64,000 bases of DNA. Origin: Desulfobacteraceae bacterium Eth-SRB1 (GTDB taxonomy: Bacteria; Desulfobacterota; Desulfobacteria; Desulfobacterales; ETH-SRB1). Made by a program: the position numbers and the translations under genes. Under the pieces are notes generated by a model. It did no database searches. It was given only the letters and a program-made list of their open reading frames with translations, and was not told the DNA's origin. Below, in pieces: positions 7,667-64,000 of this stretch (positions within the stretch are counted from its first letter, which is position 1; each line of letters begins with the position of its first letter). The stretch spans positions 192,114-256,113 of the forward strand of contig RPGP01000001.1 of NCBI GenBank assembly GCA_004193555.1, read 5' to 3'.

Positions 7667-8859
7667 ACTTTATGCCTTTCCCCGCCCAGCATAGCTCCTG
7701 CCCCTGCAAACTCTGAAATTTTTTGCGCAGCATCCTTAAGATTCTCAGTATAAATCGGCTTAAAGCTGGATTCAAAAAGAATTCTGCGGCCTTCTTCAAT
7801 GTTGGTTCCATCCATGCGAACTATTACAGGTATATTTACATCTATCTTTTCAGCAGCCTGAACAACCCCTTTTGCCAGCACGTCGCAACGAAGTATCCCG
7901 CCAAAAATATTTATGAAAACCAGCTTCACATCCTTATCGCTGAGAATAATCCCGAAACCTTTTTCAACCATTTCAATGGTAGTGCCGCCGCCCACATCAA
8001 GAAAGTTGGCCGGCGCTGCGCCGGCAAGCTTTATTATATCCATGGTTGCCATTGCCAGGCCGGCTCCGTTTACCATATTGCCGACATTTCCATTCATTTT
8101 AATATAGTTGAGATTAAATCGTGAAGCTTCGACCTCAAGAGGATCCTCCTCCTCAATATCCCGATATTCAAGGATATTCCTGTGGCGGAACATGGAATTG
8201 TCATCAATGTCTATCTTTGCATCCAGAGCAACAATAGATTCTTTGGATGTAACCACAAGCGGATTTATCTCCGCCAGGGAGCAGTCGTAATCAACAAAAA
8301 GCCTGTACAGGCTCTGAAGCATTCCAACAAACTGCTTCCAGACAGAAGATGTAAGTTTCAGGTCAAAAGCGATTTCCCGGCAGTGAAAGGGCTGAATCCC
8401 CAGATTAGGATCAATAAAAACCCTGATTATTTTATCAGGGTCTGCTGCAGCCGCATCTTCAATATCGATCCCGCCTGCCTCGCTTGCCATAATAAGGATT
8501 TTTGAAGTTTTCCTGTCAATGATAATGCCGAGATAGAGTTCTTTATCTATTTCCAGCTTCTCTTCCACAAGTACCTTCCTGACAAGCTTTCCTTCCCGCC
8601 CTGTCTGGCTGGTAACAATTTTCGTTCCGATGATGCGGTGTGTCAGGCTGTAAACCTCATCAGTCGATCCCGCAAGTTTGATGCCTCCGCCTTTCCCCCG
8701 CCCACCGGCATGGATCTGGGCTTTTATAACGACCGGAAATCTTCCGATTCTACGAGCTGTTGCCCTGGCTTCGTCAGGGTCAAAAGCGATTCCTCCATCC
8801 GGCACACTAATGTTGTATTTTTTAAATAATTCTTTTGCCTGATATTCGTGAAGCCTCAT
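7663..8859 (-). CDS. sucC: succinyl-CoA synthetase beta subunit
   Basis: The ORF starts [12 protein letters not shown] and has an ATP-grasp and CoA-ligase domain pattern. Confidence 0.9.
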
Positions 8860-9055: not shown

Positions 9056-11107
9056 TTACCCAATAACACAAAGCACATCGCCCTTTGCAACCGAATCGCC
9101 GGTGCTGAAATTGATCGTCTTGATTGTTCCGGCTACCGGAGACGGAAGGGCATTCTCCATCTTCATGGCCTCCAGAATCACAACAGACTCTCCCTTTTTG
9201 ACTGAATCGCCTATATGTTTTTGATAACTTATAATCATGCCGGGCATGGGCGACGTCAGCGGAGCGCCGTCAGCATCACTTTTTTCCCTAACTGCAGGCG
9301 CAGATTCCTTAACCGGTGGAGTAACGGAAGCGGCTGCCGGTCTGGGCGGCGCAAGAGCTGCAGGCGGCGCAGTAGAGGGAGAAAGTACAGGCGTCAGGGC
9401 TGCGGTCGGTACAGCCGGAACAGATGCTGATGCAGGTCTCTGCCGGACATAGCTCACAACCGGCGATCCTCCAGGCTCTTCCACGCCAACTTCAAAGTAT
9501 TCATCATCTACAAACACGTTAAATGTACGCAGGTTTTCCCCTTTGGGAGGAGCCTCTTTTTCCGCCTTTTCAACAAGCCTGCCGGCAAGAGCCTTTGCAA
9601 TCAGCTCCTGCTCAGCCTTAACATCTTCCAGGCTCTTTGGTTTTACTTCCGGAGGAGGCTCCTCCTTGCCGTATTTCCATTTCAAAAATCTTTTTCCCGT
9701 AACAGGATAAAGAGCGTATATAAGGACATCGTCCAGATCCACCGCAAGGCCCTTCACATCCTCTCTGGCCTTTTCCAGCTCAGGCTCCAGGACTTCGGCA
9801 GGCCTGCATGTAATCGGGTTCTCCCCCCTTGAATAACTTTTCAGGACTTTTCCCCTGACCTTTGGATTAATGGGAACAGGGGTTTTTCCATACAGTCCGT
9901 AGCACAGATCTTTTACCTGGTCCGTAATCATCCTGTATTGCTCATTTTCATCATCAAAAAGAACATTGTTAACTGTCTGAACCCCGACGATCTGGCTTGT
10001 GGGCGTTACGAGAGGAACCTGTCCAAGATCTTTTCTTACTTTCGGCAGCTCTGCATATACATCATTTAGCCTGTCCAGGGCATCCATTTCACGCAACTGG
10101 TTAACCAGATTTGAAAGCATTCCCCCGGGAGTCTGGTGGAGAAGCACATTGATATCGATTATTGACATTTTTTTGTCGTCCAGCAGATGCCGGTATTTGG
10201 GAAGCACATCCCTTTCAAGAATCTCGCTTATGGCTCCCAGGAGCTTGATGTCAAATCCGGTATCCCTGTTTGTTCCAAGAAGCGCCATAACAAACGGTTC
10301 AACCGCGGGATGTGACGTGCGGTATGCATAAGGGGACAGACAGGTGTCAATAATGTCAACGCCCGCTTCTATAGCCTTTAAATGAGCCATACAGGCCATG
10401 CCTGATGTAAAATGACTGTGAAGATGCACAGGAACCGAGACAATATCTTTTAACGCCCTGACAATGGCATATGCATCATAAGGGGCAATAAGACCGGCCA
10501 TATCCTTTATGCAGATGCTGTCCGCTCCCATCTTTTTTAGTTCTTTTGCCTTATTTATATAATAGTCAAGGTTGTAAACATCTCCGCCCATCCGGGGCTC
10601 GGTCATTGAATAACAGATACATCCCTGAAAATGTTTTCCGCATTCTTTTATAACAGGCACAACCGTTTCAAAGTTACGAAAGTCATTCAGCGCATCAAAT
10701 GTCCTGAATACATCGATACCGTTTGCGGCCGCTCGATCGACAAAGGCACGGGCAACGTCATCAGCATAATTCCTGTAGCCAACAAGATTTTGCGCTCTTA
10801 GAAGCATGGCAAAAGGGGTCTTCTTTAAATATCTTTTTAAAGTCCTTATCCTTTGCCAGGGGTCTTCATTCAAAAAACGGTGCATTGTATCAAATGTTGC
10901 GCCTCCCCATGTTTCCACAGCCCAGAATCCGACCTCGTCCATCATCTCTGCAACAGAAATCATGTCTTCAGTACGCCCCCTTGTGGCAAACAAAGACTGA
11001 TGACCGTCACGCAAGGACAAATCCATTACCCTAAGAGGGTTTTTTGCCTTAGGCCTGTCTTTGCTGTAATCCATTTTTGTGATCTCTACCTTATTATGGT
11101 CGCTCAT
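9056..11107 (-). CDS. methylmalonyl-CoA:pyruvate transcarboxylase 5S-type subunit (oxaloacetate decarboxylase alpha-like) fused to a biotin carboxyl carrier domain
   Basis: An HMGL-like/PYC_OADA N-terminus (RDGHQS) is followed by a Pro/Ala-rich linker. The C-terminal biotinyl domain carries EAMKMEN. Confidence 0.8.
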   Translation of the reverse strand: MSDHNKVEITKMDYSKDRPKAKNPLRVMDLSLRDGHQSLFATRGRTEDMISVAEMMDEVGFWAVETWGGATFDTMHRFLNEDPWQRIRTLKRYLKKTPFAMLLRAQNLVGYRNYADDVARAFVDRAAANGIDVFRTFDALNDFRNFETVVPVIKECGKHFQGCICYSMTEPRMGGDVYNLDYYINKAKELKKMGADSICIKDMAGLIAPYDAYAIVRALKDIVSVPVHLHSHFTSGMACMAHLKAIEAGVDIIDTCLSPYAYRTSHPAVEPFVMALLGTNRDTGFDIKLLGAISEILERDVLPKYRHLLDDKKMSIIDINVLLHQTPGGMLSNLVNQLREMDALDRLNDVYAELPKVRKDLGQVPLVTPTSQIVGVQTVNNVLFDDENEQYRMITDQVKDLCYGLYGKTPVPINPKVRGKVLKSYSRGENPITCRPAEVLEPELEKAREDVKGLAVDLDDVLIYALYPVTGKRFLKWKYGKEEPPPEVKPKSLEDVKAEQELIAKALAGRLVEKAEKEAPPKGENLRTFNVFVDDEYFEVGVEEPGGSPVVSYVRQRPASASVPAVPTAALTPVLSPSTAPPAALAPPRPAAASVTPPVKESAPAVREKSDADGAPLTSPMPGMIISYQKHIGDSVKKGESVVILEAMKMENALPSPVAGTIKTINFSTGDSVAKGDVLCVIG

Positions 11108-53670: not shown

Positions 53671-53697
53671 TTTTGAAAATAAATTGCTTGATTATTC

Positions 53698-53778
53698 AAC
53701 TGCCGCTCCCTACGCTGGTATAATCCAGGTCAGGTTCAAAGGGTATTTTCTCAGCCCTGTCAGGCACCCCCGCATATT
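53698..53778 (-). ncRNA. TPP (THI-box) riboswitch
   Basis: The minus-strand sequence is gggggtgcctgacagggctgagaaaataccctttgaacctgacctggattataccagcgtagggagcgg. It contains the conserved GGGGUGC, CUGAGA, ACCCUUUGAACCUGA and UACCAGCGUAGGGA elements. Confidence 0.9.
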
Positions 53779-53849
53779 TTTAATAATCTATCCGGCTTTA
53801 TCTATATAATCAAGCAATAATTTTACAACAGCTCTTTCTGTTTTCCGGG

Positions 53850-57378: not shown

Positions 57379-57813
57379 TTAGAATGCCCCCAATTGACAA
57401 TTTATTATTCTGATATTCATGGCTTCGCATGCACAACTCACCCTCATTTTATGAACATTATACAAGGCTGCTATATCCCAAACCTTACTGCACGGCAGTT
57501 TCCCAGCAACCACAGCATCAGTGATTGCATCTTTTAAATTCTGATCCGACGGCATTTTAGGTTTTACTTTCCTTTTTTTTGGTTGATATCCATATAAGCC
57601 AAGCTGGCATTTTGCCAGTCTGAAATTAAGCAGATCAACCGTCTTCCCAACATCGGCTGGTGAAACCTGCAACTCCTTTGCAATTTTAAAGGCAATAAAA
57701 CATGGGAGTTTGCCGTTTTTACTCTGTTTTAAAATTTCATTTTTAATAACACTGTTTATTTGTGCTCCGCCTTGATGTTTTGCCGCAAACTTATTGTCTT
57801 TCTGGTCAATCAT
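57379..57813 (-). CDS. hypothetical Cys-containing protein with internal duplication
   Basis: Two ~55-aa repeats each read GKLPC...(I/V)A...CQLG(L/A)(Y/F). The stop abuts the mltF start. Confidence 0.5.
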   Translation of the reverse strand: MIDQKDNKFAAKHQGGAQINSVIKNEILKQSKNGKLPCFIAFKIAKELQVSPADVGKTVDLLNFRLAKCQLGLYGYQPKKRKVKPKMPSDQNLKDAITDAVVAGKLPCSKVWDIAALYNVHKMRVSCACEAMNIRIINCQLGAF

Positions 57814-58098: not shown

Positions 58099-59190
58099 AT
58101 GACTATAAAACGTAAAAAAACGCGCCGGATCATGGTCGGAAAAGTAAAGGTGGGCGGAACGGCTCCTGTTGCCGTACAGTCCATGACCAATACATTTACT
58201 CAGGATATTCCGGCTACGGTTGCACAAATAAAACAGCTGGAAAAAGCAGGGTGTGAAATAATCAGGGTGGCTGTTCCTGACGAAGAGGCGGCCAGAGCAA
58301 TCTCTTTAATAAAAAAGCGGATTTCCATTCCAATTATAGCGGATATTCATTTTGATTACCGGCTGGCTATTGCCGCTGCAAAAGCCGGCGCAGACGGTTT
58401 GAGGCTAAATCCGGGAAATATCGGAAGCGCAGATAAAGTGAAGATTGTTGTTGGCTGCGCAAAAGATTGTAATATTCCGATTAGGATCGGGGTAAACGCA
58501 GGCTCTCTTGAGAAAGATATTTTAAAAAAATATAATGGCGCTTGCGCTGAAGGCATGGTGGAAAGCGCCATCCGAAATATCGAGATTTTAACGTCACATG
58601 ATTTTTTTAACATAAAGATTTCTTTAAAAGCATCCGATGTGCCCCGTACAATTGCGGCATACAGACTCCTTTCTTCAAAAACAGATTTTCCTCTTCATGT
58701 CGGAGTTACAGAGGCAGGGCCTCTCTATCCGGGCATTGTCAAGTCATCTATCGGTATAGGGATGCTTCTTGCAGAAGGAATAGGCGATACTATTCGTGTT
58801 TCTCTGACCAGAGATCCTGTTGAAGAGGTGCGTGTAGGATACGAAATTTTGAAAGCCTTACAGATTCGCCGGCATGGCCCTGAAATAATCTCCTGTCCTA
58901 CCTGCGGCCGTTGCAATATTAACCTCTTTGACATTGTTGAGCGTGTTGACAGGGCTCTGTCAGCAAGCACCTTGCCTATCAAGATTGCAATCATGGGTTG
59001 TCTGGTAAATGGACCCGGAGAGGCAAAGGAGGCGGATATCGGTATTGCAGGCGGTGATGGCGCTGGAATACTGTTCAAAAAGGGAAAGGTGATCAAAAAA
59101 TTTCCCCAGGAACAGCTTGTTGATGTTCTGCTGAAAGAGATTGAGCAGACTATTTTCACCACGGAGCACACAGAGACCACAGAGAAATAG
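58099..59190 (+). CDS. ispG: 4-hydroxy-3-methylbut-2-en-1-yl diphosphate synthase IspG
   Basis: The ORF has VQSMTNT and LRLNPGNIG motifs and a CPTCGRC cluster motif. The last 10 codons (TTEHTETTEK) are CACAGAG-repeat sequence. Confidence 0.95.
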   Translation: MTIKRKKTRRIMVGKVKVGGTAPVAVQSMTNTFTQDIPATVAQIKQLEKAGCEIIRVAVPDEEAARAISLIKKRISIPIIADIHFDYRLAIAAAKAGADGLRLNPGNIGSADKVKIVVGCAKDCNIPIRIGVNAGSLEKDILKKYNGACAEGMVESAIRNIEILTSHDFFNIKISLKASDVPRTIAAYRLLSSKTDFPLHVGVTEAGPLYPGIVKSSIGIGMLLAEGIGDTIRVSLTRDPVEEVRVGYEILKALQIRRHGPEIISCPTCGRCNINLFDIVERVDRALSASTLPIKIAIMGCLVNGPGEAKEADIGIAGGDGAGILFKKGKVIKKFPQEQLVDVLLKEIEQTIFTTEHTETTEK

Positions 59191-59770
59191 AAGGGGCATT
59201 CATGAGTGAAAATGGAGTTGTTCCGGTTTCTAAAATTGAAAACATTATCCTTGTCATAAGAGGATAAAAAGTAATATCGGCCCGTGAACTTGCAGAATTG
59301 TATGGAGTTACTACTGGGAATCTGAATAAAGCCGTGAAACGCAACATTGATCGTTTCCCGAATGATTTTATGTTTCAATTGACAGCGGAAGAATATAAAT
59401 CTCTAAGATTCCATTTTGGAATCTTAGAGAAGGGCCGGCATTCAAAATATTTACCTTACGCTTTTACAGAACAAGGGGTTGCAATGCTTTCAAGTGTTCT
59501 GAAAAGCAAGCGTGCTGTGCAGGTTAATATCGAAATTATGCGCGCCTTTGTTCGCTTACGCCGAATGCTATCTGTACACAAGGACCTCGAACGCAAGCTA
59601 ACTGACTTAGAGCAAAAATACGATGAGCAGTTCAAAATTGTTTTTGAGGTGATCAATCAGCTCATGACGCCGCCTGCGAAACCACGCAAAAAGATTGGGT
59701 TTGTGGTAAAGGAAAAGAAGGCTGCCTATGGCAAAAGGACAAAGGGAAGTAGGAAAAAGAAATGATACCG
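59063..59770 (+). repeat. direct repeat copy 1 (~0.7 kb: ispG 3' end + ORF6N gene)
   Basis: The copy aligns with 60960-61667 at a constant offset of 1897 nt. The first ~370 nt differ at about one position, and the 3' third is more diverged. Confidence 0.9.
59202..59765 (+). pseudogene. ORF6N (KilA-N-related) domain protein with in-frame TAA at codon 22
   Basis: The reading [59 protein letters not shown] has TAA at 59265-59267. The stop sits where family members have Q (IRGQKV). Confidence 0.65.
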
Positions 59771-59944
59771 GTTTTGTGTACGTTCAGCACGAATGTCCCC
59801 TTGGCCTATTGATGATACAAACTTATAAACTGAGGAACGTCCCATAGATTTCCCTTACCATTTTTTATTTCTTCGTGATCTTCGTGGTATTCAATTTCTT
59901 TTGATTCGCAAAAATTATTTCATAATTAGAATTACTGTCTTCAC

Positions 59945-59973
59945 TTGACAATAACGCCAAATGGCATTACAAT
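59945..59973 (+). promoter_or_regulatory. sigma70-type promoter of the Xre/RES operon
   Basis: The promoter is TTGACA (59945-59950), N17, TACAAT (59968-59973). GGGAGA lies 6 nt before the ATG at 60004. Confidence 0.55.
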
Positions 59974-60003
59974 ATATCAAAATGACACTTTAGGGAGATA
60001 ATT

Positions 60004-60429
60004 ATGCCTGCAACCGCTTCAGCTTTACTTGGGAATGAATTAGAAAGCATACACATTAAAAATCCACTTGATATTATTAAAATAAGTCAAAACGGATTAA
60101 CAAAAGGGGCATTAACCCGTATAGGAAAAGTTCTGGCTCTTACCCAAAAAGACCTTGCAGAATTAACGTCAACATCTTTAAGAACATTCCAGAGATATGA
60201 AAACAATAAAAAGTTAAATCCCATTGTATCAGAAAGTATGATTCAACTTACTGAAATAATCCGCCTTGGATTCGATGTGTTTGAAGATCGTGATACTTTC
60301 ATAAAATGGTTAAATACAGTCAATAAAGCGCTGGGACAAAGAAGGCCGATTGAATTGCTGAAATTCAGAACTGGAAGCGATTTGGTTCGTAATCTTTTAG
60401 GCCAGATACAATATGGTATTGTAGCCTGA
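60004..60429 (+). CDS. Xre/MbcA/ParS-type antitoxin (HTH + DUF2384 toxin-binding domain)
   Basis: The C-terminal motif W...N.ALG.RRPIELL...G...V...L....YG is present. The gene overlaps the RES gene by 1 nt. Confidence 0.75.
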   Translation: MPATASALLGNELESIHIKNPLDIIKISQNGLTKGALTRIGKVLALTQKDLAELTSTSLRTFQRYENNKKLNPIVSESMIQLTEIIRLGFDVFEDRDTFIKWLNTVNKALGQRRPIELLKFRTGSDLVRNLLGQIQYGIVA

Positions 60430-60896
60430 TGAACGTATACCGTATCGGAAAGAAGAAATACATAAAGGACTTATCCGGGCAAGGAGCTCGTTTTTATGGC
60501 GGACGATGGAATTACTTTGGATATCGAGTTCTATATGCCTCCGAATCTATACCGCTGGCAATTTTAGAGTATATTACTAAAACAGGAGCTGTTGAAGAAG
60601 AACTTATAAATCTGAGTATAGCTTATATAGAAGTCAAAGATGACGCAAGTTTTTCAACTATAAAGATCGAGGATTTACCTGAGGACTGGAATACATATCC
60701 TGTTCCCGAAGATTTGAAGAAAATTGGGACTGATTGGATAATTTCAGCCCAAAGCCTGATTTTGAAGGTGCCGGCAGTTAGTGCACCTGATTCTTATAAT
60801 ATTCTAATAAATCCAGTTCATCCGGAATTTAAAAAGATAAATTTATTAAAAGTATCAGAATATCAACCCGATCTAAGATTGAGAAAGAAAAAATAA
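60429..60896 (+). CDS. RES domain toxin (NAD+-targeting family)
   Basis: The ORF has GARFYGGRWN, VLYASES and AILEY motifs and is 155 aa. Confidence 0.8.
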   Translation: MNVYRIGKKKYIKDLSGQGARFYGGRWNYFGYRVLYASESIPLAILEYITKTGAVEEELINLSIAYIEVKDDASFSTIKIEDLPEDWNTYPVPEDLKKIGTDWIISAQSLILKVPAVSAPDSYNILINPVHPEFKKINLLKVSEYQPDLRLRKKK

Positions 60897-60937
60897 TCAC
60901 ACAGCACACACCAACAGGACATGAAACGCATATTTTC

Positions 60938-61087
60938 ATGGGCGTCCCTCTGGATGTCCCTGGAATACTGTTCAAAAAGGGAAAGGTGATAAAAAAATTT
61001 CCCCAGGAACAGCTTGTTGATGTTCTGCTGAAAGAGATTGAGCAGACTATTTTCACCACGGAGCACACAGAGACCACAGAGAAATAG
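60938..61087 (+). pseudogene. duplicated ispG 3' fragment (last 42 codons) with a fortuitous upstream ATG
   Basis: Bases 60960-61087 match 59063-59190. The in-frame reading is MGVPLDVPGILFKKGKVIKKFPQEQLVDVLLKEIEQTIFTTEHTETTEK*. Confidence 0.75.
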
Positions 61088-61667
61088 AAGGGGCATTCAT
61101 GAGTGAAAATGGAGTTGTTCCGGTTTCTAAAATTGAAAACATTATCCTTGTCATAAGAGGATAAAAAGTAATATCGGCCCGTGAACTTGCAGAATTGTAT
61201 GGAGTTACTACTGGGAATCTGAATAAAGCCGTGAAACGCAACATTGATCGTTTCCCGAATGATTTTATGTTTCAATTGACAGCGGAAGAATATAAATCTC
61301 TAAGATTCCATTTTGGAATCTTAGAGAAGGGCCGGCATTCAAAATATTTACCTTACGCTTTTACAGAACAAGGGGTTGCAATGCTTTCAAGTGTTCTGAA
61401 AAGCAAGCGTGCTGTGCAGGTTAATATCGAAATTATGCGTGCCTTTGTTCGCTTACGCCGAATGCTATCTGTACACAAGGATCTCGAACGCAAGCTAACC
61501 GACTTAGAGCAAAAACACGATGAGCAGTTCAAAATCGTTTTTGAGGCGATCCGGCAACTCATGGCACCGCCTGCGAAACCACGCAAGAAGATTGGGTTTG
61601 TGGTAAAGGAAAAGCAATCTGCCTATGGCAAAAGGACAAAGGGAAGTAAAAGAAAGAAATGATAACG
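60960..61667 (+). repeat. direct repeat copy 2
   Basis: See copy 1 (59063-59770). Confidence 0.9.
61099..61662 (+). pseudogene. ORF6N domain protein copy 2 with the same in-frame TAA
   Basis: The 5' region is identical, including TAA at 61162-61164. The C-terminal third differs from copy 1 at several residues. Confidence 0.65.
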
Positions 61668-61702
61668 GAAAAGACAACATTCAATCAAGATAATATCATT
61701 AA

Positions 61703-61731
61703 GGGTCAAAGGCGGACCTGACCCCTTTTTT
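61703..61731 (+). terminator. intrinsic terminator after ORF6N copy 2
   Basis: The stem gggtca/tgaccc has a 10-nt loop and is followed by CTTTTTT. Confidence 0.5.
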
Positions 61732-61763
61732 ACAAAAAAATAAGTGTATCGTAGGAATCAAAT

Positions 61764-64000
61764 GTGAGTAACGAAACTGAAAATATGGATACAAAAATAA
61801 CTGATCGCCTATGTGAGCTTCTGGAGTATGTTCATCATGTTGGGAAGCTCAATCAAAAACCTGTTTTTAAAATTGATGACTATAAACAGCTAAATATATG
61901 GGAGCATCAAATTAAAGGGCGAATCGGTATACAGCATAATGTTGCAGATTCAGACGGAATACCTATTTGGTTAAGAATAGAGCGTTTAAAGAGGATATCT
62001 CCACCATCCATACCGGAACAGATACAAGAATGGATTAGCGTTGGCAATGATCCAGAAAGTCATCCACAGATCAAAGATAAATTAATAAAAACATTGCCAG
62101 AAAAAGAAGCTGAAAAACTAATAGAAGAAGGCATTGTTAGTGAGAATGACGTCACTAATCCGCTAAAAGATCAAAATATGGAATTAAAGTTAAAGGATGT
62201 AATCTTTAGATTAAAGAACAATCCAAAAATAAAGAATGAGATTGACAATTACCTCAATGAGCAATGGTTACCTTGGTCTGAAGAAGAAAAGCCACGTAGA
62301 GCAACTATAAAAATATACAATTCTCTGTTTAGCCTTCAGCAAACGATAGAAGCGCAAGGAGATGAACAACCAATAGAGCTTATATGGGGTATAGGAATTG
62401 CGCGCTGGTTGTGTGAGGGACATAAAATCGATCACCCGTTACTTGAAAAACCAATCGAGATTGAGGTCAATCGGAATGATGGCGCTATTCTAATACATCC
62501 AAGGAATACCGAACCAAGCCTTGCTATTGACGCATATTTTGCCTTAGAGAATCCCGGCATTGACGCATTATTGCGTTTTGGGAAGAAACATTTTTCTGAG
62601 TTATCTGAGGATGTGGAATTTTCCCCCTATATTCACGAGAGCTTTGAACCTGTTCTCAGGCAGGCATCAACCCATTTGAGTGAAAAAGGTATATATTGGC
62701 CTGACATCAATCCTGACAAAGAATATCGTGAGCCCAACAATGCAAGTGAAACGCTTGAAATAACCGATAGCTGGGTTATCTATGCAAAACCTAGAAGTGC
62801 AACTGGATTTGTACAGGATATTGAGCGGTTTCAGAAAAAGCTGGAAGAATCAGTAGATAACCTTCCCTATCCCACAAAAAGATTAGTAACAGAGTTGTCG
62901 GACAAAAAACCACTATTTACTGGAAGTGGAATCTTTTCAGGTGGTGAATCTTCGTTGTCACCAATACCCAGGAAAGAAAAATCCGAATTATTTTTTCCAA
63001 AAGCTTTTAATGATGCACAGGTACAAATAATTGATAGGCTTGAAGAGAATGATGGTGTAGTAGTTCAAGGGCCACCTGGCACAGGGAAAACACATACAAT
63101 CGCTAATATCATTTGCCATTACCTTGCAACAGGACGGACTGTTTTAGTTACATCAAAGGGTGAGCCAGCTTTATCTGTCCTTCAAGAACAAATACCCGAA
63201 GAACTGAGAAGCCTAACAATAAGCCTTCTTACAAATGAAAGGCAAGGGATGAAGCAGCTTGAAGCTGCTGTTCAACTGCTGGCGGGCTTGGTGAGTCAAA
63301 CAAGCTTAAGGGCGTTAAATCAAGAAGCGGAATCAAGCGAGTTAAGAGTCAAACAGCTTAAAAAAGAAATTAGAAAAGTTGATAGTGAAGTTAAAGAATG
63401 GGGGTTAAAACAACTGAAACCAGTTGACATGAAACTATCAGGGGCTATCGCTGAAATAACAGCAATGGAATTAGCCCAGCAGGTTATTAATGGTGCTGGA
63501 TGCCATGAATGGCTTCCAGATGAACTGGGATCATCTGAAAGATATAACCCGAAATTTTCTGATTCAGATATTGCCAGGATCAGAGCAGCAAGAAGAAAAT
63601 TAGGTAAAGATATAGCTTATGTTGGTAAGCGCCTGCCCAATCAACAGGATATGTTAGATACTGCAAATATTGTCGCAATCCATGACGATTTAGCAACATC
63701 TGTAAGAATAGCAGAAGATACAAAAAAGAACCATATTCCTCCTTTGGCGGTATCCGTGGAAAAATCGGTTGATCGTGCCAAAAGTTTGATTAAGCCGCTA
63801 AAGGAGCTTTTGGAACTTCTTAGGCAACTTGATGATTCTCAATGGCTTGGGAAAATATTTTATTCACGGATCGATAGCTCATTAGAAAATAGTGAAAACA
63901 TCGATCTCTTTGATGATTTGAAGTGTGACCTTTCCGATCTATCTCAGCAAAGACAAAAATTTGTAAAAATGCTTGTTGAGGTAAACGATCCATCCTCTTG
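61764..64000 (+). CDS. large Upf1/DNA2-like SF1 helicase (AAA_11-type), N-terminal ~745 codons, runs off window end
   Basis: The frame is open from GTG 61764 (or ATG 61785) to base 64000 by manual translation. It is missing from the ORF track because no stop is present. Walker A VVVQGPPGTGKTHTIANII is followed by TVLVTSKGEPAL and a long coiled-coil insert. Confidence 0.75.
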   Translation, partial: MSNETENMDTKITDRLCELLEYVHHVGKLNQKPVFKIDDYKQLNIWEHQIKGRIGIQHNVADSDGIPIWLRIERLKRISPPSIPEQIQEWISVGNDPESHPQIKDKLIKTLPEKEAEKLIEEGIVSENDVTNPLKDQNMELKLKDVIFRLKNNPKIKNEIDNYLNEQWLPWSEEEKPRRATIKIYNSLFSLQQTIEAQGDEQPIELIWGIGIARWLCEGHKIDHPLLEKPIEIEVNRNDGAILIHPRNTEPSLAIDAYFALENPGIDALLRFGKKHFSELSEDVEFSPYIHESFEPVLRQASTHLSEKGIYWPDINPDKEYREPNNASETLEITDSWVIYAKPRSATGFVQDIERFQKKLEESVDNLPYPTKRLVTELSDKKPLFTGSGIFSGGESSLSPIPRKEKSELFFPKAFNDAQVQIIDRLEENDGVVVQGPPGTGKTHTIANIICHYLATGRTVLVTSKGEPALSVLQEQIPEELRSLTISLLTNERQGMKQLEAAVQLLAGLVSQTSLRALNQEAESSELRVKQLKKEIRKVDSEVKEWGLKQLKPVDMKLSGAIAEITAMELAQQVINGAGCHEWLPDELGSSERYNPKFSDSDIARIRAARRKLGKDIAYVGKRLPNQQDMLDTANIVAIHDDLATSVRIAEDTKKNHIPPLAVSVEKSVDRAKSLIKPLKELLELLRQLDDSQWLGKIFYSRIDSSLENSENIDLFDDLKCDLSDLSQQRQKFVKMLVEVNDPSS

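Follow-up and report, generated by a model that had tools for sequence, protein, structure and literature searches.

In this study we investigated a stretch of 64,000 nucleotides, hereafter called the window, which comes from a 1.25-Mb contig of the metagenome-assembled genome (MAG) of Desulfobacteraceae bacterium Eth-SRB1, an uncultured syntrophic sulfate reducer. Downstream of the housekeeping gene ispG, the last 128 nt of this gene (ispG') and an ORF6N gene occur twice as a direct repeat, and the unique DNA between the two copies carries an Xre/RES toxin-antitoxin (TA) module, so the locus has the form X-Y-X. We give a probability of about 0.5 to the reading that this structure goes back to one recent event of recombination or repair, in which ispG' and the body of the ORF6N gene were copied. 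The locus has the appearance of an ordinary scar left by recombination in a phage-defence island that changes quickly, and not of a new type of mobile element. Nothing about it is categorically new, and it is best described as a new and cleanly readable instance of known processes. The positions of the features are given in Table 1.

Structure of the direct repeat

Repeat search, blastn and MAFFT describe an ungapped direct repeat of 716 nt, in which positions 59056-59771 and 60953-61668 are 96.8% identical. The repeat is genuine and far beyond chance, and the constant offset of 1897 nt that a first-pass annotation had reported from the sequence alone is borne out. At the left edge, 59056-59062 match at 5 of 7 positions and strict identity begins at 59063. 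In a position-by-position comparison, the identity of the two copies to the left of 59056 is at background level (20-23%). Because the homology falls to background immediately at this point, we consider 59056-59063 to be the original junction.

Only one mismatch (59094) lies within the 480 nt from 59063 to 59542, compared with 20 in the 229 nt from 59543 to 59771 (Fisher p = 1e-9). The divergence thus steps from 0.2% on the left to 8.7% on the right. A maximum-chi-square scan places the best split at 59639, a value that 0 of 20,000 permutations reached, and the stretch 59095-59542 (448 nt) is perfectly identical. The first-pass annotation had correctly described near-perfect identity followed by about 20 late differences. 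Its gradient is in fact a step, and the two parts measure 480 and 229 nt, not ~370 and ~330 nt.

Between the repeats of 709-716 nt lie 1181-1188 nt of unique DNA. In total 1.38 units of 1.9 kb are present, the Xre/RES pair exists in one copy within the window, and copy B is followed by a conserved 70-nt terminator-like element and a helicase gene with no second TA module. An origin as a tandem duplication of the 1.9-kb unit, which had been put forward initially, is excluded by this arrangement.

The ORF6N copies and their tails

Both ORF6N copies contain an in-frame TAA at codon 22 (59265-59267 and 61162-61164) and read IRG-stop-KV where intact homologues have IRGQKV. Judged from the reading frame, both are pseudogenes, or N-terminally truncated genes at best. 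The content of the copies, the last 128 nt of ispG plus ORF6N, had been recognised in the first-pass annotation, but this codon had been missed. We rejected a recoding of TAA as Gln, since the RES gene and other genes terminate in TAA. Starts at internal TTG codons (59298 and 61195) give exactly the products SRB1_00237 and SRB1_00242 of the contig. The annotation can therefore be corrected in two respects: these two entries are nonsense-interrupted genes, and the small open reading frame (ORF) at 60938-61087 is a fragment of ispG. The ORF6N sequence also matches the PADLOC defence candidate PDC-S05 (E 1e-45).

The bodies of the two ORF6N copies differ at 0 of 341 positions, yet they differ by 2.6-5% from every other homologue, which argues that the ORF6N body with its nonsense codon, together with ispG', was copied very recently. 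The tails differ at 19 of 223 coding positions. Synonymous and non-synonymous counts are about equal and the ratio of non-synonymous to synonymous rates (dN/dS) is ~0.3, suggesting that these differences arose in functional genes. Of the 20 sites at which the repeat tails differ, ten carry polymorphisms shared with the ORF6N genes of other genomes, seven are private to copy B and three to copy A. The EVINQLM block of copy A is found in L101-L103 and the EAIRQLM block of copy B in L104, P0145, P0159 and P0168 (L and P numbers are our own handles). Moreover, the tail of L104 is 94.2% identical to A and 95.5% identical to B, while A and B share only 91.5%. Because half of the differences are shared elsewhere and L104 is closer to each tail than they are to one another, the tails have not simply diverged in situ, and they look like two pre-existing alleles.

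These tail data bear on a second history, in which an old duplicative insertion, dating back ~9% of divergence, was followed by a recent gene conversion of the ispG-proximal 480 nt that spread the nonsense codon. A step profile would be the result, and in our first homologue set the A and B tails are indeed each other's nearest relatives over the last 160 alignment columns (91%, compared with 84-85% to other homologues). The lone mismatch at 59094 is also 32 nt away from the edge, and conversion would be expected to fail there. Nevertheless, we regard this history as distinctly unlikely. It does not account for the shared tail differences and the intermediate position of L104, its tract must stop no more than 32 nt short of the homology edge, and it takes two events where one suffices. 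The ongoing gene conversion suggested by the first-pass annotation is not needed, and the 10 of 20 tail differences shared with other genomes weaken it. From the alignment, a homologous crossover seems to have taken place at the step (59095-59543), which does not look like the border of a tract converted within an old duplicate. We also tried to tell donor from resident tail by comparison with the syntenic genes of L001 and L009, which was uninformative, as their tails are 84-85% identical to A and B alike.

The ORF6N coding sequence contains a palindrome (59400-59430 and 61297-61327) with a perfect 14-bp stem and a 3-nt loop (TCTCTAAGATTCCATTTTGGAATCTTAGAGA), in a region which codes for 11 residues conserved across all close homologues (P0145-P0168). 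An operator, a recombination site and a coding coincidence are candidate readings. A viral origin of the gene was considered and rejected, since the ORF6N tail pattern was not found in viral contigs.

The region downstream of ispG in relatives

Judged by its gene content, the region downstream of ispG is a defence-island hotspot. In L001 (Candidatus Desulfaltia) a frameshifted ORF6N, the 70-nt element, an AAA_21 ATPase and a DNA methyltransferase follow ispG. The order in L009 is a frameshifted ORF6N, the 70-nt element, DUF1016/YhcG, a second 70-nt element and HsdM, and in L003 proS follows directly with no island. In both relatives that have an island after ispG the ORF6N gene is single-copy and decayed, from which it follows that the duplication in the window is derived. 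The recombination origin claimed in the first-pass annotation is borne out in this respect. The module Y is horizontally mobile, as described below. Since the 70-nt element follows copy B and not copy A, we take ispG, a single ORF6N and the 70-nt element to be the older arrangement, and the 3' flank of copy B to be ancestral.

The locus resembles other defence islands in that the same ispG-ORF6N anchor is found with different cargo, which in the window is the TA module and the helicase. It is unlike them in that the anchor itself, with 128 nt of a core gene, is duplicated around the TA module and the anchor gene appears to be dead. In a search of the literature on ORF6N in defence islands and on the assembly method of Eth-SRB1 we found nothing decisive.

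Junctions and the origin of the X-Y-X structure

At the novel junction J2 the DNA distal to the RES gene (...GGGCGTCCCTCTGGATGTCC) meets ispG at the microhomology CTGGA. The adjacent bases match patchily (GATGnnnCTGGA), as is typical of illegitimate junctions. In the event that we favour, about 480 nt would have been copied, comprising the last 128 nt of ispG and the ORF6N body with its nonsense codon. On its left side, the new copy would have been joined illegitimately to the DNA behind the RES stop codon at the 5-nt CTGGA (60960). The right end may have been resolved by homologous recombination within ORF6N (59095-59543) into a second, already diverged tail allele, the one that would have borne the ancestral 70-nt element and the helicase gene. 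Two scenarios could supply this second ORF6N. It might have been a paralogue that was already resident beside the TA module, as in L086, so that an ORF6N-TA-ORF6N array pre-existed. Alternatively, it might have been the resident allele, with tail A and the TA module coming from a conspecific donor in the same event.

Several points weigh against a single copying event. We found no conspecific genome with an empty site or a parental allele, and exact-protein look-ups for ispG, RES and both ORF6N copies were empty. The order of events given above, like any source proposed for the TA module, is accordingly tentative. The same end product would be obtained by an old duplication followed by conversion, or by a Campbell integration from a near-identical donor. 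Furthermore, the source is a MAG, and an assembler can mis-thread a perfect repeat of 448 nt.

The Campbell integration was also one of the origins offered by the first-pass annotation. In this case a circularised conspecific segment consisting of the ispG' tail, ORF6N with tail A, spacer 1, the TA module and spacer 2 would have entered by one crossover with the resident ispG-ORF6N. An X-Y-X structure with a foreign Y is its classical footprint, the TA module is demonstrably horizontally mobile, and the two tails look like different alleles. A boundary between core genome and island inside ORF6N could even give identity on the left and divergence on the right. The repeat-flanked insert is thus as expected, but reciprocal hybrids should be diverged on both sides of the crossover, and we observe 1/480 on the left and 20/229 on the right. 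The donor would have to be ~100% identical over ispG' and the ORF6N body including the nonsense codon, when the nearest other bodies differ by 2.6-5%, and a prior illegitimate circularisation at the same CTGGA is required. No circle was seen, and the 1.9-kb unit has no recombinase, no replication gene and no att/attC-like site, which also speaks against the small circular element that had been proposed. We therefore consider this origin unlikely.

The structure is similar to the products of insertion-duplication and of homology-facilitated illegitimate recombination in having resident direct repeats, with one homology and one microhomology junction. It differs from insertion-duplication in that the copies are not reciprocal hybrids of donor and recipient, as only the 3' 229 nt differ, and no vector-like circle or donor was identified.

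An assembly artefact would arise if two variants, or a chromosome and an excised circle, had been threaded through the 448-nt identical stretch. The source being a MAG makes this worth considering, as the stretch is longer than a typical short read and the corresponding graph node would have two entries and two exits. However, J2 with its 5-nt microhomology cannot be created by k-mer overlap, so there must be a real molecule in which the TA module lies upstream of an ispG fragment. The contig spans 1.25 Mb, and comparable arrays of ORF6N, module and ORF6N are found in independent assemblies. An artefact is in our opinion very improbable.

Finally, the duplicated 3' end of a housekeeping gene is reminiscent of integrase-mediated islands, with attachment sites attL and attR at the end of ispG, or of an integron-like cassette insertion. 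The window and L086 have the homology break after the ORF6N stop codon (ATGATACCGG) at one and the same nucleotide, and the 70-nt element flanks the DUF1016 cassette of L009, both of which would be in line with such an origin. For the 1.9-kb unit it is nonetheless largely refuted, and we see almost no chance for it. Neither the DNA between the repeats nor the 2.3 kb on their right encodes an integrase or transposase, and there is no recombinase in the region 59.0-64.0 kb. The repeat is 709 nt long with a divergence step and not a short identical core, no attC-like site and no known RNA or structured site was found, and the TA module in L081 ends exactly at the promoter and the stop codon with no shared flanking sites. 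The locus shares with integrase-made islands that it starts at the 3' end of a housekeeping gene, a fragment of which recurs inside the island. It is unlike them in the length and step of its repeat, in that no integrase is seen and in that the duplicated block holds a whole extra gene.

Whatever its origin, it is plausible that RecA-mediated recombination between the 480-nt near-identical repeats could excise or delete the TA-bearing segment of 1,897 nt. Loss of this segment might be counter-selected by the toxin.

Table 1. Positions of the features at the ispG locus in the window.
Feature	Position	Strand	Description
144-aa ORF	57379-57813	minus	immediately upstream of ispG; 35-75% identity in >20 Desulfobacterales loci
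ispG (GcpE), complete	58099..59190	+	Pfam GcpE E 4.5e-153; stop TAG 59188-59190
Direct repeat copy A	59063..59771	+	709 nt strict; patchy match from 59056
REP-like array, three 9-mers (NNCACRGAG)	59158..59184	+	encodes IspG C-terminal tail; repeated at 61055-61081
ORF6N pseudogene copy A, EVINQLM tail allele	59202..59765	+	ATG 59202, TGA 59765; Pfam PF10543 E 8e-26
Diverged repeat tail	59543..59771	+	20 differences/229 nt; switch from near-identity to 8.7% between 59095 and 59543
Spacer 1	59772..59937	.	unique DNA, copy A to TA module; relic motif 59803-59849; reverse 9-mer array 59871-59888
Promoter, sigma-70-like TTGACA-N17-TACAAT	59945..59973	+	11/12, best site in scan; conserved in L081
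Xre/ParS-type antitoxin	60004..60429	+	Xre-like helix-turn-helix and C-terminal toxin-binding domain; Pfam PF20432 and PF09722
RES/ParT-type toxin	60429..60896	+	Pfam RES 68.8 bits, cut-off 23.2
Spacer 2	60897..60959	.	unique DNA 3' of RES stop; two possible hairpins
Novel junction J2	60960..60964	+	microhomology CTGGA, same as ispG 59063-59067; read from sequence
Direct repeat copy B	60960..61668	+	ispG' fragment 60960-61087, then ORF6N pseudogene copy B 61099-61662
ORF6N pseudogene copy B, EAIRQLM tail allele	61099..61662	+	within repeat copy B
Conserved 70-nt terminator-like element (GGGTCAAAGGCGGACCTGACCCCTTTTTT)	61667..61735	+	3' of copy B; absent 3' of copy A
SF1 (superfamily 1) P-loop helicase-like gene, 5' part	61785..64000	+	AAA_11/AAA_30; weak defence-helicase matches; continues beyond window end

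The toxin-antitoxin module

The unique DNA between the repeats holds a TA pair which, on domain and sequence features, is a member of the known ParST/Xre-RES family. The antitoxin scores 105.2 bits with the NCBIfam model Xre_ParS_antitoxin (cut-off 90) and matches the PDB entry 8GUG_B. The toxin scores 146.9 bits with Res_ParT_toxin (cut-off 110) and is closest to ParT 6D0H (E 2e-20). Compared with described type II systems, namely ParST (ParT of Sphingobium, PDB 6D0H), Xre-RES of Pseudomonas putida (PDB 6GW6) and MbcTA, the pair shares the domains, the order with the antitoxin first, the 1-nt overlap of the two genes, an own sigma-70-like promoter, the conserved R/Y/E residues (R26, Y36 and E47 are invariant) and scores above the NCBIfam cut-offs. 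The strong promoter and the overlapping gene pair described in the first-pass annotation are confirmed. The pair is unlike these systems in that the Ser of the name-giving VPS motif is replaced by Ala. In the subfamily of RES toxins with at least 61% identity a Ser is found two residues further on (VPAVS/VPAIS; residues 115-119, 60771-60785), while more distant RES homologues retain VPS.

The TA segment 59938-60896, which begins a few bases ahead of the -35 box and ends with the RES stop codon, is 97% identical in the Logan contig L081, where its flanks are unrelated. The close RES homologues (L081 and L089-L094) have unrelated neighbours, so we rejected the idea that the TA module is part of an ORF6N unit. 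More distant homologues likewise lie among unrelated genes. From these comparisons the module is autonomous and horizontally mobile as one unit, from promoter to stop codon. A RES relic of 206 nt was also found beside SLATT/TIR genes in another MAG.

It is probable that the TA module is active and regulates itself. Xre would presumably neutralise the toxin and regulate its own operon, and RES would presumably ADP-ribosylate a target or degrade NAD+ (nicotinamide adenine dinucleotide). The promoter is directed towards ispG', ORF6N copy B and the helicase gene, and no terminator is predicted in between.

ORF6N cassettes in other loci

The ORF6N gene belongs to a cassette which in the window starts at 59186/59191 and extends through the 70-nt element, and which is composed of a ribosome-binding site, ORF6N and the 70-nt element. 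It is found at 93-97% nucleotide identity in unrelated contexts. In L100 the cassette lies between clpB and a radical-SAM gene, in L101-L103 in a type I restriction-modification (R-M) locus, and in L104 after a Fic/SLFN-like gene. The ORF6N gene is intact in L086, L087 and L100-L103, and broken by frameshifts in L001 and L009, by a miniature inverted-repeat transposable element (MITE) in L104 and by an internal deletion in L084. The repeat of the window reaches 123-128 nt past the left boundary of the cassette (59186-59191) into ispG, which means that a segment was copied locally and that the cassette was not inserted a second time.

Several loci contain more than one ORF6N sequence. The order in L086 is an ORF6N 3' relic, the motif also found in spacer 1, a DinJ/YafQ TA module, ORF6N, 51 nt with the 70-nt element, and a further ORF6N. 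L100 has an intact cassette that is preceded by a 70-nt element and a fragment of an ORF6N tail. L087 and L101 have ORF6N on both sides of hsdMS, among hsdR, hsdMS and radC. The other contigs are too short to show the whole type I R-M locus; in L101 the order is hsdR, ORF6N, hsdMS, ORF6N and radC. Like the accessory genes of type I R-M systems, ORF6N (PDC-S05) is thus embedded in such loci.

We made some further observations on these loci. The hsdMS gene bracketed by two ORF6N genes is a fusion of hsdM and hsdS (L101 5217-8564, L087 5618-9220). At the start of L103 (1-890) an ORF6N tail is fused to the last ~12 codons of hsdMS and followed by a second ORF6N, which represents a presence/absence polymorphism of the specificity/methylase gene. 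In several genomes the last 25-40 nt of hsdS or hsdMS (...GEVWGE-stop) precede ORF6N (L001 ~9100-9135, L100 7966-7990, L104 7720-7745, L087 ~6200). In the window ~20 nt of such an hsdS-type remnant are left (59183-59201), and the TAG of ispG is the positional stop of that remnant. The ORF6N cassette therefore appears to have its origin in an operon of type I R-M genes. The MITE-like insertion that splits the L104 cassette is 112 nt long (7880-7991) and contains two copies of the hairpin TTCCCCGCAGCTTGCTGCGGGG; a similar hairpin, GGATTCCCGTTTTCACGGGAAT, is found at the end of L081.

The cassette, with its conserved body, variable tail and 70-nt element, might serve as a portable homology handle for the exchange of defence and TA modules with no dedicated recombinase. 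At present we see this as a rather improbable generalisation.

Spacers and the 70-nt element

The unique DNA around the TA module is, by its sequence matches, a patchwork of relics. The motif at 59803-59849 in spacer 1 (TTGAYGATAYAAACTTATRAACTGAGGAWGTCCCATA) is part of an ~80-nt element that is also present in L086 (482-510, 2935-2962) and L104 (7635-7674). Three unrelated contigs have it in the neighbourhood of ORF6N genes and TA modules. In spacer 2, the 56 nt at 60897-60952 (TCACACAGCACACACC...CATGAAACGCATATTTTCATGGGCGTCCC) resemble the contig-end sequence L003 6096-6151 on the minus strand (unrelated Deltaproteobacteria), and may be the end of a small element. The folding of spacer 2 is marginal compared with shuffled sequences (z = -1.8), and neither the 70-nt element nor spacer 1 nor the L086 motif folds better than its shuffles. 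An integron/attC site or structured-RNA site at the junctions was rejected, because there was no Rfam match and the junction sequences are mutually unrelated.

The 70-nt element starts with GGAAAAGACAAC and ends with a GGGTCA...TGACCC hairpin and a T-run. It is found 3' of ORF6N in many genomes, for example in L009 (2148-2196 and 3614-3662), in L100 (7835-7907 and 8565-8630) and in L084/L086. In L009 it flanks the DUF1016/YhcG cassette as a direct repeat, and it also occurs 3' of an unrelated gene end (...FDEEIAQNIR-stop). The break after the ORF6N stop codon (window 59766-59772) lies at an identical nucleotide in copy A and in L086 (~1580), with different DNA beyond, while in L009 (~2148) the 70-nt repeat begins 2 nt earlier (GGAAAA, with overlapping GG). 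This shared break could be a recurrent breakpoint, or merely the end of the selected sequence.

The ispG tail, 9-mer arrays and neighbouring genes

The end of ispG contained in the repeat carries three 9-mers, ACCACGGAG-CACACAGAG-ACCACAGAG, which code for the IspG tail TTEHTETTEK and are present in both repeat copies. Relatives' IspG aligns only up to about residue 350, so this tail is lineage-specific; the closest ispG among species representatives is 82% identical. The 9-mer family has 10 sites in the window (6230, 13626, 19257, 19306, 22808, 23223, 30365, 59158, 59871 and 61055), in agreement with the earlier view that the tail is repeat-derived. These dispersed arrays of 2-3 tandem 9-mers (NNCACRGAG / NNCACGAAG) mostly lie just 3' of gene ends. 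They sometimes form convergent pairs (19257 on the plus and 19306 on the minus strand), similar to repetitive extragenic palindromic (REP) elements. Similar arrays are present in L001, L021, L049 and L079, and in L001 this array type is also found at the 3' end of ispG.

On the 5' side the repeat locus is preceded by housekeeping genes, in the order MltF-like, a conserved 144-aa ORF and ispG. The 144-aa ORF has no Pfam or NCBIfam match. Most of the closest relatives have kept its pairing with ispG, and in L001 and L010 the upstream genes include MltF as well. The best homologue of the helicase gene on the 3' side is 85% identical. We rejected a link of the helicase with ORF6N or ispG elsewhere, as P0026 (72% identical), the sole homologue whose context was examined, adjoins leuB, and no empty-site allele was obtained. 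Outside of this locus, a thiamine pyrophosphate (TPP) riboswitch at 53690-53781 on the minus strand (RF00059, 70.2 bits) is the sole Rfam match in the window above the gathering score.

Conclusions

The ispG locus of Eth-SRB1 illustrates the remodelling of a defence island that adjoins a core gene, with one homologous and one microhomology junction still readable. Near-identical ORF6N cassettes, often paired around TA or type I R-M genes, hint at recombination anchors in uncultured sulfate reducers. If the cassette really acts as a homology handle, the ispG locus would be one snapshot of a general system of ORF6N-module-ORF6N cassettes, and defence and TA modules in the islands of Desulfobacterales would be captured, duplicated, swapped or deleted via ORF6N.

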